NCBI GenBank assembly: GCA_965140785.1 | Contig: OZ223481.1 | Span: 608,001 to 672,000 of the forward strand | Source: an uncultured Ruficoccus sp. | Lineage (GTDB): Bacteria > Verrucomicrobiota > Verrucomicrobiia > Opitutales > Cerasicoccaceae | Direction: 5' to 3' | DNA: 64,000 nt | Part shown: positions 4,126 to 23,611 of the stretch, in pieces | Layout of the letters: the number at the start of each line of letters is the position of its first letter | Position numbering within the stretch: position 1 is the stretch's first letter | The notes under the pieces: model-generated | Told to the model about the DNA's origin: nothing | Databases searched by the model: none | Seen by the model: the letters and a program-made list of their open reading frames with translations, nothing else | Translations under genes and position numbers: made by a program

Positions 4126-4151
4126 GAAACAGGTAACGTTTGGACCCTCAA

Positions 4152-4269
4152 AAACTACGAAAATCGGACGTTTTTCGTAGTTTATTTGCGTCGATTGTTG
4201 TTTGTAAGTACTTGCTTATAAGTATATAATGGAATAGGTTCCGTAACCGGGTATGGGTATACCCGAACC
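4152..4269. repeat. Hairpin + 19-mer module, copy 1
   Basis: AAACTACGAAAA-tcggacgt-TTTTCGTAGTTT (4152-4183), then CGTAACCGGGTATGGGTAT (4242-4260); recurs at 23131-23240. Confidence 0.85.
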
Positions 4270-4370
4270 ATGTTAGCGCACCAGCCTCCCTCGCATAGTT
4301 TCTAGACGCATTAGGCTAGTTCCAGTTCTTGCTGATGTTGTAGGCGATGACACTCAGAACCCTTGTGCGT

Positions 4371-5006
4371 TTACCTGAAATTCCGCTCTGCCATTTTGGG
4401 TACGAGCACCACCGAAAATGCTTTGCTGACAAATATTCTTAGATGGTAACCCTTTTGGACGGATGAGTACTCCCAGTAGGAAGGGATTCGTTTGTTGGTA
4501 AAGTAGTCCGTCCTGTACTTTACGTTTAGCTCAGGGATACCGTAGGAGCTCATGAATAATTTCGCGAAATCACGTCCTGTGAGGTCTGCTACTTTAAAGA
4601 GGTGGTTGACGCCTTCCTCGGTAAGCATGAAACCGATAACAACATTTTCGTAAACATAGACTGCGCCGTAATTTACCCCGTTTACTTCAAATTGGTTAAT
4701 GATCTGTGGACTATGCCCGATGGGAAAGACGAAATCCGGTGGAATATCCTGTTTCAAATACTTGATGTTCCCCTCGACAACTTGATTCAGTTGGCTGGTA
4801 AACTCTCTTGCCGCCATGCCGGGGTATAGCCCGTGGACGATCAAGCCTGCGCTATACTCGGGTACATAAAAGCGAGAGTCAGGTATGGATTGCCTGGTCC
4901 CTCCTTCATCGGGATTTTCCGTTTGAGCCGTGGCAACGGATACAACATTCATGATGCCGATAAGCAGGGCGAGGTGCAGGGTTACATTAGGCAGTAGGTT
5001 TTTCAT
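4371..5006 (-). CDS. Hypothetical exported protein
   Basis: 211-aa ORF with signal-peptide-like N-terminus (…VSVATA|Q); overlaps the upstream gene. Confidence 0.7.
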   Translation of the reverse strand: MKNLLPNVTLHLALLIGIMNVVSVATAQTENPDEGGTRQSIPDSRFYVPEYSAGLIVHGLYPGMAAREFTSQLNQVVEGNIKYLKQDIPPDFVFPIGHSPQIINQFEVNGVNYGAVYVYENVVIGFMLTEEGVNHLFKVADLTGRDFAKLFMSSYGIPELNVKYRTDYFTNKRIPSYWEYSSVQKGYHLRIFVSKAFSVVLVPKMAERNFR

Positions 5007-5458
5007 TTTGTGGGCTTTATTTTGATTAAATCGTGTATGTCAGGCTGCCTATGGATGCGGACCGCTAACACGGTGATTGGCAGCCGAAAGCTCTCCGTAA
5101 CCTGTTCCAGGCGCAGCAGGTATTTTTCGTCGGAGGGACTTTCGATAATCAGGATGATGACCGCCTGGTTCCCTGACTCCGCCGCGTAGTTCAGGCTTTG
5201 TCCAATGGCCTCGGCCCACTTGTCCGCGAACTCCACCTCGATCGCGTACTTATCTGTCAGGATGTCGCAGCGGGTTCCGTTGGGAAGAACGACTTCGGTA
5301 TGACCATCCAGAACGCCCGCCGCCTGCTCCTGATAGTAAGACTCGGGATTTTTACGTGCCGCTTCCAGGGATGTGACTGCCAGCAGAAGGGGAAGGAGGT
5401 ACCTCAGCCGCAGGTACTGGAACAAGCGCTCTGGCGGTATTTTAAAGCCGTTTCGCAT
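5003..5458 (-). CDS. Hypothetical protein with PD-(D/E)XK-like motifs and a hydrophobic N-terminus
   Basis: E..LPNGTRCDILT..YAIEVEFADKWAEAIGQSLNYA; N-terminal LRYLLPLLLAVTSLEA. Confidence 0.65.
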   Translation of the reverse strand: MRNGFKIPPERLFQYLRLRYLLPLLLAVTSLEAARKNPESYYQEQAAGVLDGHTEVVLPNGTRCDILTDKYAIEVEFADKWAEAIGQSLNYAAESGNQAVIILIIESPSDEKYLLRLEQVTESFRLPITVLAVRIHRQPDIHDLIKIKPTK

Positions 5459-5697
5459 GTTTAAAGTCGATTCGCATGTCTTGCGGGCCGGGTCAGTGGA
5501 GCGGGGATCTACCTTGCGGGTGTAGCCGGTTGAGCGGTTCGAGGTCGTGGTGGCAGATTTTCGGATGGTGTGCGGTTATGGAGGCGTGATCCGGGCATGA
5601 ATGCACAATCACCTCATGATCATGGGGTCTGTGTGTCAATTAAAAACCTTACGTTCATGGGGTGTCCTGCCGAACCCTGCGCTCGTATGGTGGTCGG

Positions 5698-5971
5698 GTG
5701 AATAATTCTCTGACGGAACTGGGCGATCGCCTGCGGGCATTACGGGCCAAACACGGCCTCACGCAGGAGGAATTTGCCCAACTGGCTGGCATCGGCTACA
5801 AGTTCTACCAGCAGATCGAGGGAGCGCGTAAAAAGGAGATCTGGCTCTCGACCGTCGAACGTCTCGCCGCCCCCTACGGCCTGCGCGCCTGGCAACTCCT
5901 GGCTCCCTGACATGCCCGAAGATTCCAAGCTGACCCGCAAAGTCCCCAGCAGCCGGGTGCATCGGGGGTAG
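5698..5971 (+). CDS. XRE-family HTH regulator (apparent frameshift near 5905)
   Basis: LRALRAKHGLTQEEFAQLAGIGYKFYQQIE; frame stops at 5910 and plausibly continues as PDMPEDSK...RG* to 5971. Confidence 0.7.
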
Positions 5972-6138
5972 GCTAAATCAAACGCGAAATTCGAGAGGGA
6001 GGTTGATACGAAATCCCTCAACCTCTTCGGTCTGCCCGGACGAATAGTCTAGATCATGCTGAATTCGGTACTTCGAATAAGTTTTGAACTATCAATATAT
6101 ATCTTGCAGATGCTATGTTATCACCCTGTAATACAGTG

Positions 6139-6290
6139 ATGCCTATTACTGAAAGCTTACCGGATCTCGTTAAGTCCGTGCGAAAACAGCTAGGACTGAG
6201 TCAAGAAGGCCTGGCGAGGGAGATTGGTGTCAGTTTTTCAAGCATTAGCCGGTGGGAAAGCGGCAAAACGGCACCCATGCCCCTGCAACG
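6139..6290 (+). pseudogene. XRE-family HTH protein, apparently truncated
   Basis: LVKSVRKQLGLSQEGLAREIGVSFSSISRWESGKTAP, then unrelated sequence. Confidence 0.6.
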
Positions 6291-6371
6291 GAGACAGTCT
6301 AAAGGAACGCCTGGGGGAGGAGGCGAGGGTCCGGATTGCGGCGACCACGTTTTCGATCTATGCCTTCGAGG

Positions 6372-6479
6372 CTCTTTGAGAATGCGATTTTCCTCCAACA
6401 GGTAGTCGATGACTGTCTGCTGTTTACGCCCCTGACCACTCGGCCAGCCCAGTAGAAATGTCAGTAGAGCTGTAAATTG
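6372..6479 (-). pseudogene. N-terminal fragment of an integrase-core (rve) transposase
   Basis: LLTFLLGW...KQQTVIDYLLEENRILKE resembles the W.NRQQQ.VIDYL.EENR.L N-terminus of PVC rve transposases. Confidence 0.55.
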
Positions 6480-6877
6480 TGTATCCAAAGTAACGTATTC
6501 TGTTTTTCTGCAATTAGTTATCAAACATAGGTTCTCTATCTGAGGATCATGAGGTTGTATGGGGCAGAATCGAAATTGTCGTAATTATCAAACCTTTCTA
6601 CGCTTTGATTCCCATCCTTGGATCTTCAATGACAAGGTTTATGACGGATTACTGATCGACAGTTTTGTAGTCATAGCTTCTGTCTGTCGTTTTTTTTTGC
6701 GAGTCGTCGAGGGTAGAGAATATGCAACACTCTTAGTCGTTGTTTTTAGTCGCAACGTTCTTGTATTCATTGATTTGAATTGGTTCAGATTTAAAACACT
6801 TTCCAGTCCTGAGCTACTTTTGTATATTTTCACAATCAACTTCCGTTTATGTATTGTTTAACCTCATCACAAATATC

Positions 6878-7909
6878 ATGAGAATCTCTATGCCTTACTC
6901 GTATAAAATATTGTCTAGCCGTAGCCGAATGGTCTTAGTCACGGCTTTCTTTGCTTTTTCTGCGTTCTCTGTTAAGCTTGATGCGGCATTGCTGGCCTAT
7001 GAATCTTTTGATTATGGCCAGAGTAGCAGTAATCTTAACCTAGTTTCCGAGAGTCAGCGTCAAACCGGACTGGGCGGGACGTGGAATTCAGTTCCCGGAT
7101 ACAACATTCCTTGGTACAATGCCGGATCGAGTCTTTCGTTTGGCTCCCTGCAGACATTTGGCGGTCACATCGCTCAGTCGACCAGTACGGCTAACGGGCG
7201 GGCAAAGGTTCCGCTGGGCGTCGATACAAAAGGGACGACCGGAACTATATACCTGAGCTATCTGTTCCGCGCCGAGCCCTACGGCGGGGCAGAGTATAAT
7301 CCAGGGGTTGCGGCCTATGTCTCGCTCAATTCCTCCTCGTTCTTTGGCTCTTCGCAGGCCATATCGGATACAAGCGGCGTGCTTACTACGGATGCCCGAT
7401 ACAGCAATATCATTGCCTCCAGCGGATTGTATGGGGCCTCGAATGCAGATTTAAGAGCGCTGCAGGCATCTACAACCTACATGGTTATTACCGAATTTAC
7501 AAACGTTGGGTTGCCGCTTACCGGAGGCAACCCGGGGGTTGCAACGATGTGGGTGCTTACTTCTGCGCAGTACGACTACTTCATAACTAGTGGAGCCACG
7601 ACAGAGGCGCTGAATGCGGCGTCTATCGGCAGCGATGCCGACTCTGTCTTCTCTCGCGGTAGCGCACCCAAGTCCAGCGGTACCTGGACTCTGGCCGAGG
7701 ATGCATCCCTGACTGTTTATATGCATCCTTCTGTAGACAATTACTCAGCCTCTGTCGGTGCATACTTCCGCATGGATGAGATCCGGCTTGCGACAACGTT
7801 ATCCGATGCATTAACCGGTACGGTTGTTATTCCGGAGCCATCGGCCGTCGCGTTTGGAATCGGAGTCATTGCTCTAGTTGCGGCTGTTATGCGCCGCCGC
7901 CGCTCCTGA
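6878..7909 (+). CDS. PEP-CTERM surface protein
   Basis: Signal peptide, ALLAYESFDY start of mature chain, C-terminal IPEPS-TM-RRRR. Confidence 0.92.
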   Translation: MRISMPYSYKILSSRSRMVLVTAFFAFSAFSVKLDAALLAYESFDYGQSSSNLNLVSESQRQTGLGGTWNSVPGYNIPWYNAGSSLSFGSLQTFGGHIAQSTSTANGRAKVPLGVDTKGTTGTIYLSYLFRAEPYGGAEYNPGVAAYVSLNSSSFFGSSQAISDTSGVLTTDARYSNIIASSGLYGASNADLRALQASTTYMVITEFTNVGLPLTGGNPGVATMWVLTSAQYDYFITSGATTEALNAASIGSDADSVFSRGSAPKSSGTWTLAEDASLTVYMHPSVDNYSASVGAYFRMDEIRLATTLSDALTGTVVIPEPSAVAFGIGVIALVAAVMRRRRS

Positions 7910-8007
7910 TCTTCATCCGATTATTATGTACACAGATTTCCGGCCAGACTTGTCTGTGCTGGCCGGGAATCATTTATCTTCCCCGTCTGATTTGAAAAAA
8001 TACGATC

Positions 8008-8733
8008 ATGGAAAAGCCTTTAGTGATTCAGGACGGATCTCGTTGTCGTGGTCGGCATGGTTTTACTCAGACCGAATTACTCGCCGCAATCGCAATCATT
8101 CTGGTGCTGGCGGCCATCATTATCCCCGTTGTGGGCATGGTGCGCGAGGGAGCGACGGTTGTTCAATGCCAGTCAAACCTGCGGCAGATCTATACTGCAT
8201 TGATGATATTCACCGTAGAGAACGATGACTATCTGCCTCCCGGTCCGAACTGGCCGAAGGGACTAACCTACACTCAGTACGGCGGGTATTCGGCAAGCAA
8301 CTACTCGCAGATGGCATCGCATCTGGCCCCCTATATGGGCAAGGAGGTATTGACTGGTGACCGCATTGACACGACCTGGTTTTGCCCTGGGCAGTCCAAG
8401 GGTCCTTCCACCTTTTTTGAGTTTGCAAACTGTCGCTGCTATGCGATTCCGTATTTCGGGAGCTACAGCAATTATCCGTTTGGTAATATTCATCAGGGGG
8501 GCATGAAGTCTTCGAGAATGAATGACTATCTGGGGGACAGACTACCCAGTGTTGCGTGGGTGTTGCGTGATATTGACCGCAGTGTTTCCCGCTATGATGT
8601 TCCCGATGTCACCCCGTCGCGCAGTCACAGAAATGGGCACAACTTCCTTTATTTCGACGGATCTGTACGTCTGCTTACGGATCAGGAGCAGGCTGAAAGG
8701 CTTGTCGAGATCGAAAGCGGAAGAAGACCCTGA
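8008..8733 (+). CDS. Prepilin-type N-terminal cleavage / H-X9-DG domain protein
   Basis: GFTQTELLAAIAIILVLAAII, CQSNLRQI, C-terminal HRNGHNFLYFDGSV. Confidence 0.88.
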   Translation: MEKPLVIQDGSRCRGRHGFTQTELLAAIAIILVLAAIIIPVVGMVREGATVVQCQSNLRQIYTALMIFTVENDDYLPPGPNWPKGLTYTQYGGYSASNYSQMASHLAPYMGKEVLTGDRIDTTWFCPGQSKGPSTFFEFANCRCYAIPYFGSYSNYPFGNIHQGGMKSSRMNDYLGDRLPSVAWVLRDIDRSVSRYDVPDVTPSRSHRNGHNFLYFDGSVRLLTDQEQAERLVEIESGRRP

Positions 8734-8805
8734 TAGGTGTAGTGTATGATCTGATAGATATCGGAGTAACGATATTCTATGTTCTAATTAAAATTATTTT
8801 ATATC

Positions 8806-9837
8806 ATGTCTATAAGTCAAACAGCGATAAGCTACTATGGTCTTAGTTATGTTGAACACGCAGAGCGGGATTTTCGCGAGATGGCCGGACATGGCTGCTC
8901 AACGGTGATTCTTGCTGTTACCGAGTTCGATTTTGATTTCTGGAGGCCGAACATCGGTAAGATTGTTGATCAAGCTCATGAACTCGGGTTGAGGGTTCTG
9001 CTGGATCCGTGGGGGATCGGCAAGTTCTTTGGCGGAGAGCAGGTCAGCCTATTCCTGCAAAACAATATTGAAAACCGTCAGGTTTCGGCCCTCACCGGAG
9101 AGAAACTTCCGTATGCCTGCTTTAATACTCAAGCATTTCGTGATTATTTTCAGAATATCTGCCTCACGCTTGCCCGCGAAACAGATGCGGACGGATTTTT
9201 CTGGGATGAACCGCACTACGCGTTCCCTAAGTCCTATGCATCGATTACGGGCGGGGCAGGGGATGACTGGAGCTGTCGCTGCCCTGTGTGCATGGCGAAG
9301 TTCAAGACGTACTATGGTTATGAAATGCCGCGCCTGATGAATGATGATGTGAAGCAGTTTCGCTGGCGTGAAGCGCTGTTTATTTTGGAGGATACCTCGC
9401 GGAAGCTCAAGGAACTCAAGCCGCAACTGGAGATAACCTGCTGCGTACATGCCACGCTCAACAGCTACTACGTAACCGAGCATCGCGGCTACGATAACTG
9501 GGACATGGTGGCAGCATCGCCTTATTTTGACGTGTTCTCAACGACAATCATCAATTGGGATCTGCCGCATTCCTTCTTTGAGCACATCACACGCCGGACA
9601 GTTGAGATTGCTCGGAAACATGGGAAAAAGTCGGAGCGCTGGCTGATGGGCTATTACAAGCAGCCTGCCGATTTTTCTGATCTGGATAAGGTTGTCGATC
9701 TCTATGTTGATCTCGGCGTCGATCGCCTGGCCACATGGACGTACCGTGGAGGATACGGCACCGTTCTTGCCGCTCCGGACGCGATCAAGCTGTGGGATAA
9801 GATTGGCGAAAACTATAACCGTGTTCTTGTTAAATAA
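8806..9837 (+). CDS. Glycoside-hydrolase-like TIM-barrel protein
   Basis: DGFFWDEPH, CRCPVC Cys cluster; position in a sugar locus. Confidence 0.7.
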   Translation: MSISQTAISYYGLSYVEHAERDFREMAGHGCSTVILAVTEFDFDFWRPNIGKIVDQAHELGLRVLLDPWGIGKFFGGEQVSLFLQNNIENRQVSALTGEKLPYACFNTQAFRDYFQNICLTLARETDADGFFWDEPHYAFPKSYASITGGAGDDWSCRCPVCMAKFKTYYGYEMPRLMNDDVKQFRWREALFILEDTSRKLKELKPQLEITCCVHATLNSYYVTEHRGYDNWDMVAASPYFDVFSTTIINWDLPHSFFEHITRRTVEIARKHGKKSERWLMGYYKQPADFSDLDKVVDLYVDLGVDRLATWTYRGGYGTVLAAPDAIKLWDKIGENYNRVLVK

Positions 9838-9848
9838 ATTTTATTGTT

Positions 9849-10607
9849 ATGAGAGATCTTAATGACTTTGGATATCTTGATCAGGTTGTTAGCAACCTGA
9901 AAAAAGTGAAAGAAACTCAGGCGGAGAATATCGCAGATGCCGCGCGACTTATGGCTGGCGCAATTGCGGAGGATCGCCTGATCCATGTGTATGGCGGCGG
10001 CGGCCACACGACTCTGGTTATGGGTGAAATGTTTTTCAGAGCCGGTGGCCTTGCCAACATCAACCCGATTATGGAGACGGGACTTTCCGTATTTAATCAG
10101 GCGTTGAAGTATCTGGAACTGGAGCGCACGGAGAACTATGGCTCTGCCATTGTGAAATACTATGAGCTGCAGGAAGGAGATGTTCTGATCATATTCCATA
10201 ACATCGGGATTAACGCAGCGACGATTGATGCGGCAATGGAGGCAAAGAGAGCTGGTGCGAAGATTATCGCCGTTTCCAGCAGTTTCTGGCAGAATGAAAT
10301 GCCGTCAGATCATTTCATCCGACACAGTTCGGCACGGAATCTTTTTGAATTCGCCGATGTGTGTATCGATGACTTTAATCCTGTCGGGGACTCAGTTGTG
10401 ACTGTTCCTGGGTTTGCGACTCCGATCGCACCGATCTCCAATGTGGTAGACTTTACTATCGCCCACTGGCTGGAGATTGAGTGCATTCGTCAATGCGTTG
10501 AGCGCGGGGTTGTTCCTCCGGTCTGGCGGAGTGCAAACGCTCCGGGAGGTGATCAGTTTAATGCTGAGAATCTTAAAAAGTACCGCCCGCTGGTTAAAAG
10601 TCTTTAG
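9849..10607 (+). CDS. SIS-domain sugar isomerase-like protein
   Basis: IHVYGGGGH..EMFFRAGGLA, GINAATID, PPVWRSAN. Confidence 0.85.
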   Translation: MRDLNDFGYLDQVVSNLKKVKETQAENIADAARLMAGAIAEDRLIHVYGGGGHTTLVMGEMFFRAGGLANINPIMETGLSVFNQALKYLELERTENYGSAIVKYYELQEGDVLIIFHNIGINAATIDAAMEAKRAGAKIIAVSSSFWQNEMPSDHFIRHSSARNLFEFADVCIDDFNPVGDSVVTVPGFATPIAPISNVVDFTIAHWLEIECIRQCVERGVVPPVWRSANAPGGDQFNAENLKKYRPLVKSL

Positions 10608-10625
10608 GGGAAATGCCGAATGAAA

Positions 10626-10654
10626 CCCTGATCCGAAAGTCATTTTCGGATCAG
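10626..10654 (+). terminator. Intergenic hairpin
   Basis: CCCTGATCCGAAA-gtcat-TTTCGGATCAGGG right after the SIS gene; no clear U-tract. Confidence 0.45.
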
Positions 10655-10691
10655 GGACAGTCTCTAAAAATTGCTATAAATACCCTCTATT

Positions 10692-14132: not shown

Positions 14133-14249
14133 GGAGCGGGGTGGCCTCTGTATCCGTAATGGGTCGGATTGCTGTTTGCGGGCGATCTGCGCAGGTGGGA
14201 CAATCGCTGTTTTACCCGACTGAATTTTAAATAAATATCCGCTTTAGTT

Positions 14250-14900: not shown

Positions 14901-16002
14901 CATACTCATTGCCGGAACGGGAAACCCGCATATCCCTGCTTACCTTCGGGGGAGCGGGCGTGATGTGAGCGGGCTGAACATCGTTGCAGTTTCGGATGCG
15001 GACGCAGGGCGTTTGGAGCGGGCGGGGGAAATGCTCGGTGACGACTCCGCCCGTGTACGCTTTTACCGTGACCACAGGGAAATGTTTGCCGCGCATCCGG
15101 ATGCGGATGCCGTGATTATCGGCAGTGATAATATCGATCATCTACGCATGTTTGAAGATGCGGTTTTCCACAATTTTCACATCTTTATGATGAAGGTGAT
15201 CTCGATGGATGAGAGAGAGTGCCGTCGGATGCTTGAGTTGGTCAAGAGCTATGACAGGGTGGTGCAGTGCGAGCTGGAGCTGCACTTTCACCCTCAGTTC
15301 AGGGCTGCGCGGGAGCTTGTCCGCTCGGACAGACTGGGCGAAATAAAATCCATATACCTGAGCAATATCAGCCAGAGCCCTTGCAATTATTTCCCCAACT
15401 GGGGCGACCCGGTGCTGTCGTACGGAAAGAAAATTCCGATTCGTCCGGGAGCGGATTATTACCGCGGAGGGGCATTGACTGATCACCCCCATGCCTTTGA
15501 CATGGTGCGCTGGATTACCGGTGCAGAGTTTGATACCGTGCGTGCGCTGTCTGCCCTGAACCAGCGTTCGCATCTAGAAGTTGAGGATCATGTTGCCGTC
15601 ATGGGGCGTCTGGACAACGGCGTGAAATATTTTATCAATCCTTCGTACTCCAATCTGGAGGAGCGGGTTGCGACACGCAGATTGCTCTGGCCGAAATCTT
15701 TGGAGTGTAATCTGAAGATCACGGGCACCGCAGGGTATTATTCCTGTGATTTCTTTGACCATCACTGCTACATAATCGGTAGCAATTATGTCTCTGCAAA
15801 TCGTCTGATCGTTGACAGCACTCCGCGCCCTAAACCCGATCAGGATGATTCGATTATCGGGAGCTTTATTGCGTGCATCCATAAGCGGCGGGAGCATCCC
15901 GAGTCTGCGCTGGCCGATTCTTATGCCGCAGTAAGAGTGATGAATGCGGCCTATGAGTCGATTTATCATAATTGCGAAATCACACTGGAGCCGCTGCGGT
16001 AA
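14887..16002 (+). CDS. Gfo/Idh/MocA oxidoreductase
   Basis: ILIAGTGNPH, DAVIIGS, GGALTDHPHAFD. Confidence 0.88.
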   Translation: MQKINILIAGTGNPHIPAYLRGSGRDVSGLNIVAVSDADAGRLERAGEMLGDDSARVRFYRDHREMFAAHPDADAVIIGSDNIDHLRMFEDAVFHNFHIFMMKVISMDERECRRMLELVKSYDRVVQCELELHFHPQFRAARELVRSDRLGEIKSIYLSNISQSPCNYFPNWGDPVLSYGKKIPIRPGADYYRGGALTDHPHAFDMVRWITGAEFDTVRALSALNQRSHLEVEDHVAVMGRLDNGVKYFINPSYSNLEERVATRRLLWPKSLECNLKITGTAGYYSCDFFDHHCYIIGSNYVSANRLIVDSTPRPKPDQDDSIIGSFIACIHKRREHPESALADSYAAVRVMNAAYESIYHNCEITLEPLR

Positions 16003-17348
16003 TGAGTGTTGTTGAAAATACGTATCGCTGTGGCACGCTGACTTACACGAGGCTCGGATTGATCAATCTGTTCGTCTGGCTGCTGTGGGGAGACTTTTGT
16101 TATACCATCATGGCTACCATGATGCCGACTCTGGTCCCGCTGATGCTGCGCAGCCATGATGCCAGTAATTTCACGATCGGACTTTTGGTCGGGAGCGTAC
16201 CTGCGATCCTGAACTTTATTATCAATCCGATTGTCAGCACAACCAGTGACCGTACGCGGAGCCGCTGGGGACGCCGCCGTCCGTTCCTGATGTTCTCACC
16301 ACCTTTTGTGGTGATATCGCTGATCCTCCTTGGCTGGAGCGACAACATCGGCGCATTCTTCTATCAGATGGCTTGGGGAGATGAGGGGAGCCCGGCAACA
16401 TTCATCATCTGCCTGATTGCCATCTTTACGATCTCATATCAGGCCTTTGATCTGTTTGTCGGCGCAGTGTACTCTTATCTGTTTGCCGATGTTGTGCCGC
16501 TGCAGTTTATCGGCCGCTTTATGGCTCTGTTCCGTATGGTCGGTGCATTGGGCGGAATGTGCTTCAATCTTGTCGTGCTGCCGTTGGCCGATGTGCATAT
16601 GCCTATGATCTTTACGGTCATTGCGATTATCTACTTTCTCAGTTTCACTGCAATGTGCATTAATGTGAAAGAGGGCGAGTACCCGCCTCCGGCAACGGTT
16701 GCCCCCGGTATTTTGCCAATGGTGAAGATGTATGTGCGGGAATGCTTCAGTATCCCCTTCTTTTTCATTCTGTTTATCGGGCTCGGGATGAACTACGCAT
16801 CCACGGTTTGCCGTGGAATATTCAATCTGCTTTTCGCTACCGAGACGTTGGGCCTCAGCCTGAGACAGTATGGGAATATTGCAGTCGTTGGCTCGATTGT
16901 CGCCATTGTGCTCTATATCCCTGCCGGTATTCTGGTTGACCGGCTTCACCCGCTGCGGGTTTACATGATGGGGGCCGTGCTAGTCATACTTGCAAATTTA
17001 TTTGGATTTTTCTTCGTCAGCGATTTCTACAGCTTCTTCATCGTCGCCGTCGTTATTGCGATTGTCTACGTGTTTCAGGACAGCAGTATGCTGCCTATCT
17101 GTGTTAAGCTCTATCCGAAGGCAAAGTTCGGGCAGTTTTGTTCGGCTGCGGCTATGGTGAAGGCGCTGCTCCTTGTGGCGGCCAATGCCGGTGGGGGAGC
17201 ATTTATTGACTGGCTTGGGTATCAGTATATCTTTATCTGGGACCTTATATTCACTTCGATTTGCTTATGTGTCCTTATCTGGGTATATCGCAAATGGAAG
17301 ACTCTCGGCGGAGATCGGAACTACACGCCGCCGTGTGTTGAAACGTAA
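16002..17348 (+). CDS. MFS transporter
   Basis: About 12 hydrophobic segments; SDRTRSRWGRRRPF motif. Confidence 0.9.
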   Translation: MSVVENTYRCGTLTYTRLGLINLFVWLLWGDFCYTIMATMMPTLVPLMLRSHDASNFTIGLLVGSVPAILNFIINPIVSTTSDRTRSRWGRRRPFLMFSPPFVVISLILLGWSDNIGAFFYQMAWGDEGSPATFIICLIAIFTISYQAFDLFVGAVYSYLFADVVPLQFIGRFMALFRMVGALGGMCFNLVVLPLADVHMPMIFTVIAIIYFLSFTAMCINVKEGEYPPPATVAPGILPMVKMYVRECFSIPFFFILFIGLGMNYASTVCRGIFNLLFATETLGLSLRQYGNIAVVGSIVAIVLYIPAGILVDRLHPLRVYMMGAVLVILANLFGFFFVSDFYSFFIVAVVIAIVYVFQDSSMLPICVKLYPKAKFGQFCSAAAMVKALLLVAANAGGGAFIDWLGYQYIFIWDLIFTSICLCVLIWVYRKWKTLGGDRNYTPPCVET

Positions 17349-17404
17349 TGCGGGTCAGGCCTGCGATGTGCTGCATCTCTGATGCTGCGTTGTTGCCGGT
17401 AGCA

Positions 17405-18466
17405 TCAGGGCGCCGGAGTGCTCTTTAACGGACCGCGCAGAGTCGGCCCCTCCGTCCACTGCGGGCGGAGCAGCAACTCGCGGCTTGCTGAAGGAATGCC
17501 TGTGTCACCGCGCAGGATGAGGCTGTGCATGAGATCGATTGCTCCTTCGCCGATCTGATCGACGTTAAGGATGATGCCTGCGGCCTCGGGCGAATGGATG
17601 TTGGTAATCAGTGAAACACCGACATCTTCAGGCACCCTGACTCCGGTGGAGCGGATCCAGTTGATGGCTTTTACCTGCGGTGTCACCACGACTTCGGGTC
17701 TTTCGCTGAGAAACCACTCGGTGAAGTCTTCCTGCTCGATCTGGTCGGGCAAATAGGGGCGGACGTACTCCAGCTTCCGGTCGTGGGGCAGGTGCCATTC
17801 TTTACTGAGGCCACCAAGCCACTCAAACCGGTGTCGTTGCAATAAATGGCGTTGCTGTGCGAGGCCGATTCTGCGCACTCCGCGTGCTTTGAGTTGTTTG
17901 CAAATCAGATGCATCGACGAATACGCGTCAACTGCCACGCGGTGCCATTGTTCGACATAGGCAGGGTCGCCAACTCCGACGCCGACCAATGAATAGTATT
18001 TCCAGTCCATCTTTGGCAGCTTCGCGGTTTCATTGCGAAAAGGCAGAACGATTAGACCTCTTGTGCCTCGCGCCTTCAGAATACGATCCGGCTGCTTCCA
18101 ATTGTGTAGGTGCTTTTCTAAAAGAACTTCGTTCAGGGCATAGCCGTATAAAGCCGCAGCCTTATGCATTCCCGACAGGCACAGCTTGAGCCATGAGTTG
18201 TCTTCGCCAGCACGGTCATCCGTCCAGCAGTCATCAATGATAACTGCAAGATTTGCCAGTGCGCGCCGCTGGCCACGCCGTGCAACCAGTGCGGCCAGTA
18301 TCGGATCTGGCCTGTAGCCCAATTCCTTGGCAGCCTCTCTGAGCCGTGCCCGTGTGGAAGCTGCGATTTCTGGGTTATTACGTAGCCCCATGCTTGCGGT
18401 TGCTATGCTTACGCCGGCATGGTTTGCGACATCTCTCAACGTGATGTTTTTTTCGTCAGATGGCAT
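17405..18466 (-). CDS. LacI-family transcriptional regulator
   Basis: ITLRDVANHAGVSIATAS...LGYRPD, VRVPEDVG; ATG at 18466 preferred. Confidence 0.9.
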   Translation of the reverse strand: MPSDEKNITLRDVANHAGVSIATASMGLRNNPEIAASTRARLREAAKELGYRPDPILAALVARRGQRRALANLAVIIDDCWTDDRAGEDNSWLKLCLSGMHKAAALYGYALNEVLLEKHLHNWKQPDRILKARGTRGLIVLPFRNETAKLPKMDWKYYSLVGVGVGDPAYVEQWHRVAVDAYSSMHLICKQLKARGVRRIGLAQQRHLLQRHRFEWLGGLSKEWHLPHDRKLEYVRPYLPDQIEQEDFTEWFLSERPEVVVTPQVKAINWIRSTGVRVPEDVGVSLITNIHSPEAAGIILNVDQIGEGAIDLMHSLILRGDTGIPSASRELLLRPQWTEGPTLRGPLKSTPAP

Positions 18467-18494
18467 AATCCCCTTTGATATGTATTTATATGCA

Positions 18495-19580
18495 GCGCGG
18501 ATTCCAACTTCTAAGGAATCATTGTTGTGCTGGGTTGAGCTGGTCAAGCTGCGAGGTGTAGTTTGAGGTTGTTGGGTGAAAGGAAGTGGAGGGTTTTGCG
18601 TGGGCGTTGGTTGAGTTGGGCTTCGATGTGGGCGAGCCTAGGCTCGCCCACATCGAGGAAGTTCGTGCCTTTGGGAAAGTATTGTCGGACCAGTCCGTTG
18701 AAGTTCTCGAGGCCGCCTTTTTCCCATGAGTGGTAGGGCTTGCAAAAGAATCCGGCTGCGCCGAGGGCCTCACTGAGGCGTTGGTGTCCGGCGAACTCGA
18801 GCCCGTTGTCATAGGTGATGGTGTGCACGCGGTAGCCTTGCAAGGCGGCGATGATGGCCTCAGCGGTCTCGTTGGCATCTTTGCTTTGCAACAGTGCCAG
18901 CCGCCCATAGCGGCTCTTGCGCTCGTAAAGGCTCAGCACGTAACCACCACCCCGGCAGCCCGCGATGAGGTCCGCCTCCCAGTCGCCGTAACGCTCGCGC
19001 CGCTGCACGATGGCAGGCCGCAGCTCAATGTCCACGCGGGCCGGAAGCTTGTGGCGGCGGGCTTTGTTCTTGTGCCGATAGCGGCGTTTACCGTTGATGC
19101 GCAGGTGCAGGTAAAGCTGGCCTCCGCGGTCGCGCTCGGCCTGGATAAACGTGTAGATGCTCGTGCGCGAAGGAACCGCCTGGCCTTCGCGACGCAGCGC
19201 CCCGCTGATCTGCTCGGGGCTGTGCTTGCACTCAAGCCGCTCACGCACAAGGGTCTCCAACTCTGCCTCGATCACTCGGTGGCGGCGACGCTTGCCGCGT
19301 TGACGCTCAAGCGCCTTGGCATGCGCCTGACCAGGACGATAACCGCGTAGCCCGTGATTACGACTCAGCTCCTTGCTGATCGTCGATTGAGAAAATCCCA
19401 GATAATGGGCGATCTCACGCTGACTCTTTCCGGCTTTACGCATGCGATAAATGATGGGACGATCCTCCACGCGGAGGCGACGGTAGCTCTTCTTCGGCAT
19501 TTTGATTGTGGTAAATCGCAATGCTTGAGCACCTGCTCGACCTCCGCACCTTTTTATTCCCTAGATGGTGGCATCCGCCC
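18495..19580 (-). mobile_element. IS30-family insertion sequence
   Basis: Imperfect terminal IRs GCGGATTCCAACTTCTAAGGAA (from 18497) and TTCCCTAGATGGTGGCATCCGC (to 19578); ends approximate. Confidence 0.85.
18544..19500 (-). CDS. IS30-family transposase
   Basis: STISKELSRN, GDWEADLI, TITYDNGLEF, PYHSWEKG..ENFNGLVRQYFPK, LNQRPRK. Confidence 0.93.
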   Translation of the reverse strand: MPKKSYRRLRVEDRPIIYRMRKAGKSQREIAHYLGFSQSTISKELSRNHGLRGYRPGQAHAKALERQRGKRRRHRVIEAELETLVRERLECKHSPEQISGALRREGQAVPSRTSIYTFIQAERDRGGQLYLHLRINGKRRYRHKNKARRHKLPARVDIELRPAIVQRRERYGDWEADLIAGCRGGGYVLSLYERKSRYGRLALLQSKDANETAEAIIAALQGYRVHTITYDNGLEFAGHQRLSEALGAAGFFCKPYHSWEKGGLENFNGLVRQYFPKGTNFLDVGEPRLAHIEAQLNQRPRKTLHFLSPNNLKLHLAA

Positions 19581-19626
19581 AGCTTAATATTGCGATTTTA
19601 AAGGAATAAATCGCTGGTTTGATTGC

Positions 19627-20117
19627 TTAACTTATACGGAATTTACGCCTATAGGATTGCGGGGTAAGACCAATGACTTTTTTGAATCCGCGGTTGAAGT
19701 GGGCGCTGTCGGCAAATCCCAACTGGTGGGCAATCTCTGAGGATGTCGCGTTGCTGGAAAGCAGGCGGCGGCATGCGCGATGAATCCTTCGGCGTTGGAA
19801 ATAATCGCTGGCAGTCAGTCCTGTAGTCATCTTAAAAAGTCGACAGAAGTGTGATGCGGATGCTCCAGAATGGGAGGCAATCATTTTCATATCGGGCGTT
19901 TCTCCGGTACGTACCGGTCGTTCGATTTCCAGTAGTCCGCGCATGACGGAATCGGGCCATGCTCTGCTGGCTGTTGCATTGAACTCGCGTACGTAGGAGC
20001 GAATCATGCGGATCAGGCACTTAAGAAAGCAGGCCTCAAGGAACAGCGTCTGTCCGTCGGGGGAATCGCCCTTGCGTTGAAGTTGTTGAAAGTCGACAAG
20101 ACATTCGTCTAGCTGTC
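19627..20117 (-). pseudogene. AraC-family regulator, 5' part displaced by IS3
   Basis: SHFCRLFK...IAHQLGFADSAHFNRGFKKVIGLTP; upstream sequence is the IS3 left end. Confidence 0.8.
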
Positions 20118-21162
20118 TGAGCCTCCCGAAAGTGGTCCATTGCTGATGAGATGATTTTCTGTCAGATGACAGATAATCGAGTATGAAACGAGGAAGACGA
20201 AGCACCGAAGAGATCATCCGCATCCTTCGCGCGAGCGAAGGGCTAAACGTCGAGGATGCCTGCCGCGAGCACGGTATCAGCACGGCGACGTACCATCGCT
20301 ACAAGCGCCAGTATGGGGGGTTGGATGTGAAGGAGGCACAGCGGCTACGGGACTTGGAGAAGGAGTTCACGAGCGTAGCGAGAAGGCCTGACACTCCGAG
20401 TTGAAGAAGCTGCTTGCCGACCAGTTGCTCAAGACCAAAGCCCTTGAGATTGCGTTGGAAAAAAACGCCTGAGCCCGGATCACCAGCGCGGGGCGGCCGC
20501 CAAGGTCGTCGCCGCGCTTCGGTGCTCCGGGAGACAAGTGTGCCGGTGGCTGGACATTCATCGATCAACCTATCGTTACCAACCCAAGCCGCTGCCCGAG
20601 AAGAAGCGGCTGCTCGAAGCCCAGATCGTGAAGATGAGCCAAGGTCACGCGCAAACTGCGAGAGGCCGGTTGGGCCGTGGGCAAGAAGCTGGTGCAACGC
20701 GTACGTCGACAAGAGGGCCTGCAAGTGCCTGCTCCTAAACCACGCACACGTCGTCAGGGCTTGTCGACCGGACTGCCGCAGCAGGCCACGCATCGCAACC
20801 ATGTCTGGGCCTGGGACTTCGTCTCCGACCATACTCAGCGCGGCGGCGCCCTGCGTTGCGTTAACCTCATCGACGAGTTTACGCGGGAGTGTCATTGCAT
20901 CCATGCGGATCGCTCGATCAAGGCCGATGATGTACTCGCCGTGCTCAAGCAGGCAATCGCCACCCATGGCGCGCCCGAGTATATCCGCTCCGATAATGGG
21001 CCTGAGTTTATCGCCAGGCCCATTAAGCGCTGGTTGGCCGACAACCAGATCAAGACGCTCTATATCGATCCGGGGTGCCCTTGGCAGAATGGCTACGTCG
21101 AATCCTTCAACAGCCGCTTCCGGCAGGAGTGTCTGGATCGCGAACTGCTCTATACCCTCAGC
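20118..21162 (+). mobile_element. Degenerate IS3-family element (orfA disrupted, orfB truncated)
   Basis: TG start; orfA ACREHGISTATYHRYK; orfB VWAWDFV, IRSDNGPEF, PWQNGYVESFN, cut off after LLYTLS. Confidence 0.85.
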
Positions 21163-21440
21163 GTAAGCGTCACGTGTAGCACCATCGGATATGGCTTGTC
21201 TTGGCCCTTGTGGTCGTATGTGGGCGAGCTACGACGGTTATGACAGTTACGACTCAGGCTGCGTGCGGCGCTGTGAGCCGTTTGCTTTTGGCAATGGCGA
21301 CAGGAGTCATACTCGGGATGCGTCGAGTGGTGGCAGCCGGGAGGGTTTTGAGCAGGAAGAGGATGTAGGGGTCGAGGCCGTGTCGCTTGGCGGACTCGAT
21401 GAGGGTGGAGAGGATGGCGGAGGTTTCCGAGTCGATCATC
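21163..21440 (-). mobile_element. IS66-family right-end remnant (TnpC C-terminus plus IR)
   Basis: GTAAGCGT at the IS3 breakpoint; SAILSTLIESAKRHGLDPY matches the IS66 C-terminal motif. Confidence 0.7.
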
Positions 21441-21446
21441 ATATCC

Positions 21447-21555
21447 CAGCTAAAAGTAAAGTCCCCCCTCTTGCTGCCCCTGCATACGAGGCGAGTACGG
21501 AAGGGGAGCTTTTCTGGGAATGTAAACCATGGTTTACACTTTGGTGGTCGGCATG
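21447..21555. repeat. ~105-bp direct repeat, copy 1
   Basis: Near-identical to 22189-22293; perfect palindrome TGTAAACCATGGTTTACA at 21521-21538. Confidence 0.92.
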
Positions 21556-21630
21556 CTGACCCAAACGTAGAAGTGCAATTAACATTTAAATTATTGACAT
21601 GACCCCTTCCTCTCCTGCAATGACACTGTT

Positions 21631-22067
21631 ATGACTACCGATAGGTTTGAAAAAAAGCTCTTCGAGAAGTAAAAAAAGAACAACCGGATTTTCAAAAAGC
21701 AGTTCGGATTCTAGAAGAAGGCATAGCCTTGGGGTCGGGTGAGTGCTCTTACGCGCTGGGAACGTGGTACCTTCATGGCGAACATGTCAAAAAAAACATG
21801 AGACGTGCAATATCTCTGTTGAGAATAGGGGTAAAGTGTGGAATTGCAAATGCTTGCTACGATTTAGCAGTATGCTATGAAAATGGAGCCGGTGTAAGGA
21901 AAAATTTATCCAAAGCATTTGAGTTATATACATTGGCAATGTTAAATGGAGATAAGCAATCGATTATGGAAATTGGGAGGTGTTTCTATTATGGGATAGG
22001 AGTTGAGGTAAATAGGAAGGTCGCTAGAGTATGGCTTGATCACGCCAATGCGTTAGGTCTAAAATAG
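21631..22067 (+). CDS. Sel1-like repeat protein (frameshift in A7 run at 21650-21656)
   Basis: YALGTWYLHGEHVKKN, YDLAVCYENGAGVRKN, EIGRCFYYGIGV; AT-rich; ATG at 21631 is out of frame by one base. Confidence 0.8.
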
Positions 22068-22095
22068 AGGCTTACAAGCAGACAGCATTCTTGTG

Positions 22096-22190
22096 GTGCA
22101 GCCACAGTTTCAGCTTCTCTTGTGCATGTTGGCGGGTTGGATGAATCGCCAACAGCAGCAGCTGATCGAGTATTTTCAGGTGGTGCGTCA
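22096..22190 (+). pseudogene. N-terminal fragment of an integrase-core (rve) transposase
   Basis: Reads VQPQFQLLLCMLAGWMNRQQQQLIEYFQ; same family as 6372-6479. Confidence 0.6.
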
Positions 22191-22293
22191 GCTAAAGAAA
22201 AGCCCCTCTTGCTGCCCCTGCATACGAGGCGAGTACGGAAGGGGATCTTTTCTGGGAATGTAAACCATGGTTTACACTGTGGTAGTCGGCATG
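22189..22293. repeat. ~105-bp direct repeat, copy 2
   Basis: Matches 21447-21555; palindrome at 22259-22276. Confidence 0.92.
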
Positions 22294-22330
22294 TCTTGGC
22301 ACTCTTGAGGGCGCGGGTGTCCGCTTCTGC

Positions 22331-23101
22331 TCAGTTCAGCCCTAAGGTTTTGTCGAGGAGTTGGTGGAGGCGGTGGGTGCGTTCGGGGAGGAGGCCGATG
22401 CGGCCCTTGAAGACCTCGGTGAAGGCGTTCTGGAGGCTCCAGGCGGTGCGGGGCTTAAAAACCTCATGCCGGGGGTGGCGCCATTCGTGCAGGACTTTGG
22501 GGATGTACCCGTTGGCCATGACACCGGCATCCACAGCGCGGATGATGAGGTCGTGGGCGCAGCGGTCGTTGAGGCGGACGCGGCGGTAATAATCGACCCG
22601 CCGGTCGTGTCGGTCCCAGTAGCGTTTGAGGCCCGCGACAGCATCCATGGCCAGCGCGGGCAGGTCTTGAAGGATGCGCGGGGTGTGTTTGCGAGCGAGT
22701 TGTATCTCCCCGGAGAAAGAGAGATTGTCGCAGACGAGGACTTGGCTTCCGGCAACGACCCCGGCGGAGAAGCGTTGGTCATGGCTGTTGCGCACACCGA
22801 CGACGTAGTTGTATTCGAGTCCCGATACGTGGGCGTCGATTTCGAGCAGGCCAAAGTACCGGGCGCGGTCATGGGTGAGCCCGTGGGCCTGTCCGGCGAC
22901 GGTAAAACCCTGTTCGAGCAAGGCGATCTCGACGACCTGCAAGAGCTGGATGTGCGGAATGGGCCTCCACGTGCGGGTGGCACGGGGCGTTTCGGTCTGG
23001 GCAAGTTCGCTCAGGCTGATGGCATGGCTACCGTGGTGCAGGAGCAGGTTGCAGCGCTTGGGAGCGGCGGGTGAGACGGGTTCGAGGGTGTCTGTGATCA
23101 T
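22331..23101 (-). CDS. DUF932-family phage/plasmid protein
   Basis: TWRPIPH, RNSHDQRFSAGVVAG...VCDNLSFSG, RKHT, TAWSLQNAFTE. Confidence 0.82.
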   Translation of the reverse strand: MITDTLEPVSPAAPKRCNLLLHHGSHAISLSELAQTETPRATRTWRPIPHIQLLQVVEIALLEQGFTVAGQAHGLTHDRARYFGLLEIDAHVSGLEYNYVVGVRNSHDQRFSAGVVAGSQVLVCDNLSFSGEIQLARKHTPRILQDLPALAMDAVAGLKRYWDRHDRRVDYYRRVRLNDRCAHDLIIRAVDAGVMANGYIPKVLHEWRHPRHEVFKPRTAWSLQNAFTEVFKGRIGLLPERTHRLHQLLDKTLGLN

Positions 23102-23130
23102 GGTTTTTGTGGGTTGGATTTGAGGGTTAA

Positions 23131-23243
23131 AAACTACGAAAAATGTTCGATTTTCGTAGTTATTGGAAAATGCTTACCAGCCTGCATGGTCGATGAATAA
23201 AGGCCCCGTTCGTCGCGGTGTCGTAACCGGGTATGGGTATCCC
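23131..23243. repeat. Hairpin + 19-mer module, copy 2
   Basis: AACTACGAAAA-atgttcga-TTTTCGTAGTT (23132-23161), then CGTAACCGGGTATGGGTAT (23222-23240). Confidence 0.85.
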
Positions 23244-23311
23244 AGATGGCTTTTACGGCACCGGGCGGCATCGGTGAGGTGGGCAGGCTGATGGAGGGTG
23301 CGGGAAAAGAC

Positions 23312-23346
23312 AAAAACCCCGCCCCGGTGGAAGGGCCGGAGCGGGG
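23312..23346 (-). terminator. Intrinsic terminator-like hairpin
   Basis: Minus strand CCCCGCTCCGG...CCGGGGCGGGG followed by TTTTT. Confidence 0.6.
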
Positions 23347-23374
23347 CTGTATTGACCTGTCATGACATGCAGGC

Positions 23375-23611
23375 TCAGCGGTAGCGTTCGCGCTCCCGTT
23401 CGTACTCGGGGTATTCCGGCATGAAGGGCGAACGCCTCACGGCCCCCACTGCGTAGCCGATGGCCCCGATGAGGACGGCCACGGAGATGACCAGGAACGG
23501 ACTGAGTGCTTCCTTGGCCTCGTTGACGGCTCCGATGGCTACGGGCCCCACAAGCGTCCCGACGCTGTAGGCCGTGAGCGCGACGAGTGCGAGCTTAAGG
23601 ACGGCATTCAT
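23375..23611 (-). CDS. Small membrane protein
   Basis: 78 aa, two hydrophobic segments, overlaps the upstream ORF. Confidence 0.6.
   Translation of the reverse strand: MNAVLKLALVALTAYSVGTLVGPVAIGAVNEAKEALSPFLVISVAVLIGAIGYAVGAVRRSPFMPEYPEYERERERYR

Follow-up and report, generated by a model that had tools for sequence, protein, structure and literature searches.

Small antisense or regulatory RNA genes, such as OOP of phage lambda and par of plasmid pAD1, point towards a neighbouring gene, whose terminator they share, and the cis-acting antitermination RNAs of lambda (nutL/nutR) and HK022 (putL/putR) occur two per element. Here, we analysed a non-coding cassette of ~145 nt that lies twice in a 27-kb pipolin at tRNA-Gly of an uncultured Ruficoccus sp. 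(Verrucomicrobiota; assembly GCA_965140785.1), within a stretch of 64,000 nt (contig OZ223481.1, positions 608,001 to 672,000; hereafter the window, in whose numbering coordinates are given). Each copy consists of a hairpin, a linker of 56-58 nt and a second palindrome (block 2); copy 1 (M1) lies directly after the piPolB polymerase gene, and copy 2 (M2) lies upstream of a DUF932 gene. Like OOP and par, the cassette is a short unit with a promoter-like motif and a conserved 5' stem-loop, which is convergent with a neighbouring gene, would end at the terminator of that gene and is gained or lost whole; unlike them, it has no target found in the window or the genome, and one to three paralogues per island lie beside three different genes. 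With nut and put sites it shares two or three copies per element, structure, and a place upstream of a terminator and regulated genes, but its G-T strand bias is on the other strand, a strong terminator precedes M2 and no N- or Q-like factor was identified. Bidirectional intrinsic terminators resemble the cassette hairpin in being stem-loops flanked by an A-run and a T-run at gene ends (in two relatives, the stop codon falls within the cassette stem or immediately ahead of it), and the hairpin occupies the position of GC-rich hairpins upstream of distant DUF932 genes; however, the cassette stem is AT-rich (3 G-C pairs), is coupled at 56-58 nt to a second palindrome and was not called by a terminator scan. 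On the sequence evidence, the cassette is real, conserved and island-specific, and its likeliest nature is that of a terminator joined to a regulatory-RNA unit; readings as a replication origin or as a recombination site are not supported.

Block 2 is an imperfect palindrome of ~50 nt, GGTKYCGTAAC-(24 nt)-GTTAnsGCACC, which is common to all copies. Its 5' half is the identical 19-mer CGTAACCGGGTATGGGTAT, found on the plus strand at both 4242-4260 and 23222-23240; from shuffles of the window, the expected number of matches to this 19-mer was 0.01 even when 3 mismatches were allowed. An earlier note on this DNA had described the two hairpins and the identical 19-mers, and their coordinates were confirmed at both sites. 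The M1 hairpin, CTACGAAAA-tcggacg-TTTTTCGTAG (4155-4180), lies between convergent genes and together with its flanks (4150-4183, unstranded) reads as an A-run, CTACGAAAA, the loop, TTTTCGTAG and a T-run; its RNA folding energy was -13.3 kcal/mol on the plus strand and -12.4 kcal/mol on the minus strand. The gap between the end of the piPolB open reading frame (ORF) at 4125 and the CTACG of this hairpin is 29 nt, not the 26 nt first given. The M1 linker (4181-4236, plus strand, 56 nt, 27% GC) is followed by block 2 (4237-4283, plus strand, GGTTCCGTAAC...GTTAGCGCACC), which scored 62.7 bits at 4234-4291 with a covariance model and contains both the 19-mer and the hairpin CGGGTAT-gggt-ATACCCG; this hairpin had been noticed before and is real, though it is merely the apical part of the block 2 palindrome. 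The M2 hairpin, CTACGAAAAA-tgttcga-TTTTCGTAG (23134-23159), is likewise embedded in an unstranded array of A-run, CTACGAAAA(A), loop, TTTTCGTAG and T-run (23129-23162). Its linker (23160-23216, plus strand, 57 nt) carries TTGGAA (23164-23169) and CATGGT 16-17 nt apart, the latter block being TATGTT in relatives, and then ATAAAGGCC. Block 2 of M2 (23217-23266, plus strand, GGTGTCGTAAC...TTACGGCACC) includes the second 19-mer, has an outer stem of 11 pairs and scored 71.4 bits at 23212-23271. Counted from the last hairpin base, the 19-mers begin 61-62 nt downstream, a little further than the 59-60 nt reported at first.

To the right of M1, a conserved flank (4290-4350, minus strand) is a remnant of the C-terminus of a gene (...IAYNISKNWN*) that is present at full length (344 aa) only in island E1 of a related genome, G013. 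Over ~110 nt, this flank is 88% identical to contig C57 of another relative, G015, and 73% identical to G013 E1. At 4314-4373, the stop of the ORF at 4371-5006 is followed by 19 in-frame codons ending ...IAYNISKNWN*; this tail is kept at the DNA level in G013 E1 and in G015, while the rest of the gene differs.

The covariance model of block 2 was searched over five genomes of the genus: G000, which is the 4.36-Mb assembly containing the window, G012, G013, G014 and G015. Ten strong copies scoring 57-73 bits were found (two in G000, five in G013 and three in G015). The same search returned no copy in G012, and a weak match in G014 (E = 0.047) was discarded as coding sequence of an unrelated gene. 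All ten copies belong to one family of tRNA-integrated islands, with one to three per cassette-bearing island, which bears out the earlier proposal of a conserved, element-specific composite cis element, in this case from three genomes of one genus. In the 4.36-Mb assembly, both motifs occur at two sites alone, each inside the island; they are therefore not a genome-wide repetitive extragenic palindrome (REP), the possibility that the earlier note had named as a refutation, and the related bacterial interspersed mosaic element (BIME) was rejected on the same count of two copies of each motif. Profiles of the hairpin and of block 2 matched one-to-one throughout the G000 genome and in the G013 and G015 island regions, and the hairpin was never found alone; the hairpin type is present upstream of block 2 in nine of the ten copies and is degenerate in G015 M1. 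Linker lengths in the ten copies were 56, 57, 57, 58, 58, 57, 57, 57, 58 and 58 nt.

The gene contexts of the copies are equally regular. All ten are intergenic and at gene ends, and in every one of them a converging gene has its 3' end towards block 2, with the other neighbour on the hairpin side. Six are M2 copies (G000, G015 and G013 E1-E4), located between the terminator of the nuclease / o23595 / o23375 operon and the start of DUF932. Three are M1 copies directly after piPolB (G000, G013 E1 and G015 contig C57), with the piPolB stop codon inside the hairpin in G013 E1. The remaining copy (M0) is upstream of piPolB on G015 C57, inverted relative to M1, so that the G015 piPolB gene is bracketed by an inverted cassette pair, M0/M1. 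G015 is a fragmented metagenome-assembled genome (MAG) in which M2 and piPolB are on different contigs ending nearby, and that they belong to the same element is not demonstrable. On C57 (L014, 3702 bp), the piPolB frame is split near reverse-complement 1403-1578, either by a real frameshift or by an error of the MAG assembly, and at the end of the contig the C-terminus of a transposase, which we take to be of the IS5 type from a motif ...ATRYDKRA..., is inserted beside the M1 flank.

Five sibling islands with an Int / PD-(D/E)XK / o23595 / o23375 / DUF932 backbone are located on G013 contig C1, at about 1.006, 1.033, 1.46-1.48, 1.849 and 3.22 Mb (loci L082, L094, L033, L083 and L012). Only E1 among them has piPolB; E2, E3 and E4, all without piPolB, carry M2 alone, and E2 has a primase-helicase instead of piPolB (BT4734-like_N, DUF5906 and VapE-like domains). 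E5 has the same backbone and lacks hairpin, linker and block 2 as one clean indel of ~145 nt. The cargo of E1 is a type III restriction-modification system with AAA_15/UvrD (Gabija-like), and that of E2 is a type III restriction-modification system with the primase-helicase.

Beyond the genus, the cassette was not recovered. The piPolB gene is present in 4 of 401 sampled genomes of the phylum, and none of the three distant piPolB genes (33-37% identity) has a cassette downstream. A DUF932 homologue was found in 24 of 401 genomes of the class sample. Ten distant DUF932 loci that were inspected (G072, G156, G308, G114, G014, G479, G598, G078, G222 and G583) are without block 2; they have a GC-rich hairpin within ~45 nt of the start or the aligned position. 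In these distant loci, the hairpin is upstream of the start or aligned region and the upstream gene varies, being RadC-like in several by eye. Among loci L036-L053, several (G072, G114, G479, G598 and relatives) have GGTTGAAA(C)GA(C)GAA directly before the GC-rich hairpin, and this GGTTGAAA-type motif may be a family-wide leader feature of DUF932 genes. A degenerate 21-mer scan of GTDB species genomes returned the two G015 contigs and 2 unrelated matches, with no further copy. The 6 matches from JGI metagenomes were unrelated, carboxyltransferase GDGVVTGYG coding sequence among them, and none was accompanied by island proteins; of 10 matches to a looser pattern in IMG/VR, 0 scored as block 2, the best reaching 15 bits vs 57-73 for true copies. 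No match was obtained by blastn of M2 against plasmids or of M1 against phages, or at either copy by Rfam cmscan of positions 1-28000 with E up to 1.

Within block 2, a stretch of 21 nt in the 5' half (GGTGYCGTAACCGGGTATGGG) is near invariant while its partner arm drifts. The region of the 19-mer varies by genome, with GGGT in all G000 and G015 copies and GGGA in all five G013 copies, and G015 M1 has a 1-nt deletion in the 19-mer; variation by genome and not by site fits a shared trans-acting partner or conversion between copies. Over the ten copies, the 11 pairs of the outer stem of block 2 are formed in 86% of cells vs 21-49% for slid partners, and the 13 hairpin pairs in 88.5% vs 42-55%. 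The outer stem has 8 G-T cells, which pair on the plus strand, vs 1 A-C cell. Summed over the ten copies, RNA folding energies were -236 (plus) vs -213 (minus) kcal/mol for block 2 and -125.5 (plus) vs -104 (minus) kcal/mol for the hairpin, which reached -8 to -18 kcal/mol in nine of ten copies; the 161-nt M2 region gave -54.9 (plus) vs -39.6 (minus) kcal/mol. These alignments indicate that both palindromes are conserved and give a modest hint that the plus strand is the one that folds; selection on pairing is not proven from ten related copies.

Linkers of different site types are 45-64% identical. The sequence between hairpin and 19-mer, which had been described as unrelated in the two window copies, is not wholly so: when the ten linkers are aligned at their right ends, they share the positional motifs TTTTGGAAA, GCCTGTATG and ATAAAGGCC, with window copy 1 the most diverged. 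The GC content is 27% in the M1 linker of the window vs 44-50% in the other nine. In this linker, TTGTAA-17-TATAAT (4202-4230) matches 10/12 positions of the sigma-70 consensus, and an RNA started from it would begin at the first bases of block 2. Two blocks, TTGGAA/TTGGGA and TATGTT/CATGGT, are conserved in the M2 copies at a distance of 16-17 nt and enclose a variable stretch. Several other roles were tried and rejected. For a guide-like linker, only chance 12-15-mers were found elsewhere in the genome, the 8-codon ORF of the M2 linkers, a candidate leader peptide, is not kept in M0 or M1, and sigma-54 and extracytoplasmic function (ECF)-type promoters in block 2 were not conserved among the copies on inspection.

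The cassette has a constant anatomy, is conserved, comes and goes as a unit and recurs in the same gene contexts; that it is transcribed, from which strand and promoter, and any regulatory role, we infer. We tentatively interpret it as a self-contained transcription unit in which a hairpin that terminates in both directions and a promoter-like linker are joined to a structured plus-strand RNA, an account to which we give somewhat less than even credence. Placed between an A-run and a T-run, the AT-rich hairpin would serve as a bidirectional intrinsic terminator and insulator at gene ends. The linker of 56-58 nt would provide a plus-strand promoter of the TTGGAA...TATGTT type, or TTGTAA-17-TATAAT in window copy 1, and block 2 would form the structured 5' part of a short RNA. 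This RNA would run towards the 3' end of the converging gene and stop at the terminator of that gene, and the near-invariant 21 nt may be the part recognized by a partner RNA or protein. The flipped loop of copy 1, discussed below, would be a by-product of a small inversion or of ectopic conversion between palindromes and not a functional flip/flop. Most copies have at least four T behind the stem on each strand, and the A-run and T-run flanks of the hairpin, its placement at gene ends and its replacement of the GC-rich hairpin of distant DUF932 loci fit a bidirectional terminator and insulator. Each of the six M2 copies has a GC-rich, A/T-flanked terminator 45-80 nt downstream of block 2, and G015 M1 has a plus-strand-only terminator (CCGTCC-CCCCTC-GGACGG-TTTTT) directly after block 2. 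Furthermore, the clean presence or absence seen in E5 fits a small accessory gene.

Several observations weigh against the transcription unit. The promoter scan called copy 1 alone, which is 1 site vs 1.2 expected in shuffles, and the promoter-like motifs of the M2 copies match at most 8/12 consensus positions and were not called. The predicted start also differs, being at block 2 in copy 1 and ~19 nt upstream of it in the M2 copies. The AT-rich hairpin, with 9-12 pairs of which merely 3 are G-C, a loop of 7-8 nt and T-runs on both sides, was not called by the criteria of the terminator scan, and by eye a plus-strand terminator after block 2 was not evident in G000 M1 or G015 M0. No target complementary to the 19-mer was found in the window (3 mismatches) or the genome (2 mismatches). 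Covariation is weak as well: no pair of the block 2 outer stem is changed on both sides and shuffles match the observed values, while in the hairpin two pairs (4 cells) are changed on both sides, and the observed values were reached by 18-34 of 500 shuffles on three measures and by 208 of 500 when such pairs are counted. With 7 G-T vs 7 A-C cells, the hairpin is without strand bias. Finally, the ten copies are from three related genomes and four of them, the G013 M2 copies, are near-identical, which makes the independent evidence thin.

The same palindromes can be read from the other strand, as a minus-strand leader or regulated terminator in which the RNA of block 2, bound by an island factor, decides on read-through of the hairpin and its U-run. 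The order along that strand would be a co-oriented gene, block 2, 57 nt and the hairpin, followed in M2 and M0 by the start of DUF932 or piPolB. Block 2 does face the 3' end of a minus-strand gene in all ten copies, the hairpin is 32 nt before the DUF932 start in the window and ~46 nt before an in-frame piPolB start in G015, at least four T follow the stem on the minus strand in eight of ten copies, and the hairpin stands where distant DUF932 loci have a terminator-like hairpin. Yet in M2 a strong GC-rich terminator separates the upstream operon from block 2, and the intervening 40 nt, also GC-rich, gave no promoter match; on the minus strand, moreover, C-A mismatches replace the 8 G-T cells of block 2 and the fold is less stable. 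M1 has no downstream gene to regulate (read-through there would produce RNA antisense to piPolB), and DUF932 is intact in E5 without a cassette. We regard such a leader as unlikely, and we think no better of a site that acts as duplex DNA, at which island DNA-binding proteins, for example the two Xre-type helix-turn-helix (HTH) regulators, would use two different palindromes ~93 bp apart from centre to centre, flanking a promoter, as an operator pair or looping site to co-regulate DUF932, piPolB and their neighbours. Both sub-sites are indeed palindromic, their spacing is constant to within 1 nt in all ten copies, two HTH genes are part of the conserved backbone, the genome-specific GGGT/GGGA is common to paralogous copies, and a near-invariant 21-nt 5' half facing a drifting partner arm fits sequence recognition rather than pairing. 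However, half-sites 24 bp apart, as in block 2, would be unusual for one dimer, no similar palindrome precedes the HTH genes themselves, and changes in the hairpin arms keep pairing, as in CTGTG/CGTAG via two G-T (G015 M2) and CC(T)GCG/CGCGG (G015 M0), which a duplex site does not need. It is more improbable still that the cassette is a decaying or selfish repeat with no present function, derived for example from a small palindrome-associated (IS200/IS605-dependent) unit or a duplicated intergenic relic. Its presence/absence polymorphism, the degenerate hairpin and 19-mer deletion of G015 M1, and block 2 covariation not above that of shuffles are what such a relic might leave. The copies are confined, however, to one island family and three intergenic contexts rather than scattered (2 in 4.36 Mb), and the linkers drifted to 45-64% identity while the 21 nt stayed near invariant and the length remained 56-58 nt. 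An IS200/IS605-dependent element was rejected for the same confinement and because matches to PF01797 number 0 in G013, which has five copies and no Y1 transposase, 2 in G000 and 4 in G015.

The remaining proposals place the function at the level of DNA. The copy 2 hairpin is close to the reverse complement of that of copy 1, as the earlier note had seen: the hairpins match at 24/26 positions inverted vs 21/26 direct, and a repeat search of the hairpin regions gave 35 nt at 91% in complementary vs 33 nt at 85% in direct orientation. The six M2 loops have one orientation (AAAYGTYC), and the loops of G013 E1 M1, G015 M0 and G015 M1 are of another type (GAGTAGGAG-like), holding or mimicking the piPolB stop codon. 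Only M1 of the window carries an M2-type loop, inverted; this is therefore a local event and not a general trait of the system. A loop enclosed by short inverted repeats readily undergoes a small inversion, and conversion of a palindrome from a paralogue can take place in either orientation. In chloroplast genomes, minute inversions have been described for hairpin loops of non-coding DNA; there too, a loop between short inverted repeats is reverse-complemented with unmoved flanks, the difference being that the flipped copy here resembles a conversion from an M2-type hairpin and that the other piPolB-side hairpins have a different loop. We consider it quite unlikely that the cassette is a recombination joint for swapping or rearranging modules (the piPolB segment or the DNA between copies), either through a recombinase site or as a patch of homology. 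As in lox, FRT and dif sites, the hairpin has inverted arms of 9-12 bp around an asymmetric spacer of 7-8 bp, and the arms CTACGAAAA and TTTTCGTAG around 7-8 nt have the geometry of a tyrosine-recombinase core site. G000 and G015 are close in the backbone (DUF932 96% over 127 residues on the contig, nuclease 86%) and distant in piPolB (47-53%), with similarity resuming sharply at the first base of block 2 (4237-4350, 88% identical); a joint would also suit the inverted pair around the G015 piPolB, the extra copies in piPolB islands alone (3/3 vs 0/3 piPolB-less siblings with M2) and the presence/absence polymorphism. On the other side, spacer TCGGACGT differs from TCGAACAT, the reverse complement of copy 2, at 2/8 positions (5/8 in direct orientation), and the better match is inverted though the 19-mers are direct. 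A spacer mismatch blocks strand exchange at lox/FRT-type sites, and lox-type exchange between the two copies would therefore be blocked, which counts against the lox-like second recombination site once proposed. Nor did Pfam identify a cognate recombinase: by its families, the window has the att-site integrase, which uses other motifs and the tRNA-Gly attachment (att) sites, and the IS30-type transposase of the cargo alone, with several window ORFs having no family. M2 is inside the conserved backbone and not at a homology break, and a Y1 transposase is missing from G013 in spite of its five copies. Inversion or deletion between the copies, suggested before, found no support, as assembled contigs of two runs (X1 and X2) are colinear without a joint, and contigs of four runs (X1-X4) over 3800-23600, two of those from X1 with 0 differences, show no alternative loop orientation; rare forms are invisible in contigs. 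Integron attC sites were also rejected, since the fit is confined to the AAC/GTT cores (CCGTAAC...GTTACGG), 19 kb lie between the sites, which form no array, and Pfam shows no IntI.

Equally doubtful is a replication origin or single-strand initiation (ssi) site of the excised island, at which folded plus-strand hairpins would mark the start of piPolB or another replicase. Origins of the Staphylococcus aureus pathogenicity island (SaPI) type have iterons flanking an AT-rich stretch beside the replicase gene. M1 of the window is comparable in lying directly 3' of the polymerase gene, as do the M1 copies of all three piPolB islands, with an AT-rich 56 nt (73% A+T) between two repeats, here palindromes. 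Block 2 has its plus-strand G-T bias, single-stranded DNA (ssDNA) folding gave z = -2.8 for M2 and -2.3 for M1, and in the parts of the pipolin literature searched no pipolin origin is described. But the cassette has a single 19-mer per site and no iterons, and its AT-richness is found in one of ten copies. Nor is its occurrence tied to that of piPolB: M2 is kept by three piPolB-less G013 islands, one of which (E2) has a primase-helicase, the cassette is missing from the sibling island E5, and it is absent at all three distant piPolB genes. These findings count against the piPolB origin put forward in the earlier note. In the text available to us, the 2017 Cell Reports paper on piPolB reports no strong sequence requirement for initiation and touches on replication origins in one remark, as possibly selected at random (PMC5695915); the main text of the 2024 Nucleic Acids Research survey of pipolins, as far as it was available, has "origin of replication", "hairpin", "inverted repeat", "DUF932" and "Verrucomicrobi" 0 times (PMC11551731). 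A single-strand promoter of the Frpo/ssi kind, whose hallmark, in the portion of the source consulted, is a long stem of single-stranded DNA in which -35 and -10 boxes are re-formed (PMC11541004), was rejected because the ssDNA of the cassette folds into two separate short hairpins with no such stem. Taken in general terms, a cis site of fixed geometry, with two folded palindromes 56-58 nt apart serving as a DNA-level replication start of the excised circle or as a joint for swap or inversion of a replication module such as piPolB or a primase-helicase, is improbable, if worth keeping in view; it is compatible with the data because extra copies lie beside piPolB alone, G015 has an inverted pair and homology breaks at block 2.

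The island itself has the components of a pipolin, namely a piPolB-type family B polymerase (by Pfam match), att repeats at a tRNA, a tyrosine recombinase and an excisionase-like gene. A repeat search identified attL (300-446, unstranded), a direct repeat of the tRNA-Gly 3' part and its flank at the left end, and attR (27508-27654) as a 147-nt direct repeat with 96% identity and an exact core of 384-446 = 27592-27654; attR overlaps tRNA-Gly(ccc) (27609-27683, minus strand), and a weak tRNA match lies near the left end at 404-460. Just inside both att ends (478-520 and 27465-27515), AGTCACTAG-type motifs are repeated, three of which adjoin the integrase gene; these motifs, unrelated to the cassette, probably serve as arm-type sites for integrase binding. 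A DUF6036-like gene lies between attL and piPolB (1636-4125, plus strand, 829 aa; Pfam DNA_pol_B_2, E = 9.5e-13), the product of which shares 74% identity with its G013 counterpart over residues 23-827. Two ORFs with no family separate piPolB from the two Xre-type HTH regulator genes (5662-5910 and 6115-6405, plus strand), which belong to the backbone; G013 E1 keeps both and E2 the first. Between the HTH genes and a Sel1-repeat gene (21729-22067) lies sugar-use cargo with LacI, an IS30-type transposase and AraC. By Pfam, the cargo at 8008-17348 concerns carbohydrate use and not defence, and includes a DUF1559 / N-terminal-methylation protein, a SIS-domain protein, a glycoside-hydrolase-like protein of 1146 aa, a GFO/IDH/MocA oxidoreductase, an MFS transporter and a LacI regulator. 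A perfect 34-bp palindrome (17 + 17 nt, no spacer) is located at 18623-18656, near the 3' end of the IS30-type transposase ORF. The two cassettes had been thought to bracket the variable region; cargo does lie between them, but so do the two HTH genes and DUF932, and the right boundary of the variable cargo is not M2 but a 91-nt direct repeat with 97% identity (21465-21555 and 22203-22293) that flanks the Sel1-repeat gene. Each copy of this repeat has a perfect 18-bp palindrome, TGTAAACCATGGTTTACA, after a terminator-like hairpin; the repeat is single downstream of DUF932 in G013 E1-E4, and a third copy of the TGTAAACCATGGTTTACA palindrome is on G000 contig C4.

Further right, the DUF932 gene (22331-23101, minus strand, Pfam DUF932), whose start is the one near the M2 hairpin, is followed beyond M2 by a GC-rich intrinsic terminator (23315-23348, minus strand; 13 pairs and then TTTGTCTTTT) at the end of the backbone operon (23375-25189, minus strand), which comprises the PD-(D/E)XK nuclease (23864-25189), o23595 (23595-23912) and o23375 (23375-23611). 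Flanked by an A-run and a T-run, this terminator is possibly bidirectional. An excisionase-like HTH_17 gene (25437-26033, plus strand) and the tyrosine integrase gene (26059-27432, minus strand), both assigned by Pfam, complete the island. An AlphaFold2 model of the DUF932 protein (19 homologues; predicted local distance difference test, pLDDT, 78) has a five-stranded sheet domain and a helical domain, and Foldseek returned no match for it in the PDB at E <= 0.001. Its top match in VIA-align was the C-terminal domain of Tn7 TnsE (Z = 8.0, with a root-mean-square deviation of 3.0 over 117 residues), a Z within the chance range. The titles and abstract openings of papers that mention DUF932 contained nothing bearing on its function.

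The pipolin literature, in the portions searched, describes no cis-acting sequence besides att repeats. If the cassette is a terminator with a small RNA, it would be an ordinary but new regulatory part; should it act as a site at the level of DNA, it would be the first cis element to be defined for pipolins and would make their replication or module exchange accessible to experiment. With 0, 1, 2 or 3 copies each, the sibling islands make up a natural series in which association with the DUF932 backbone is separated from association with piPolB. A compact and conserved non-coding unit is now defined in a Verrucomicrobiota pipolin and in its piPolB-less sibling islands.

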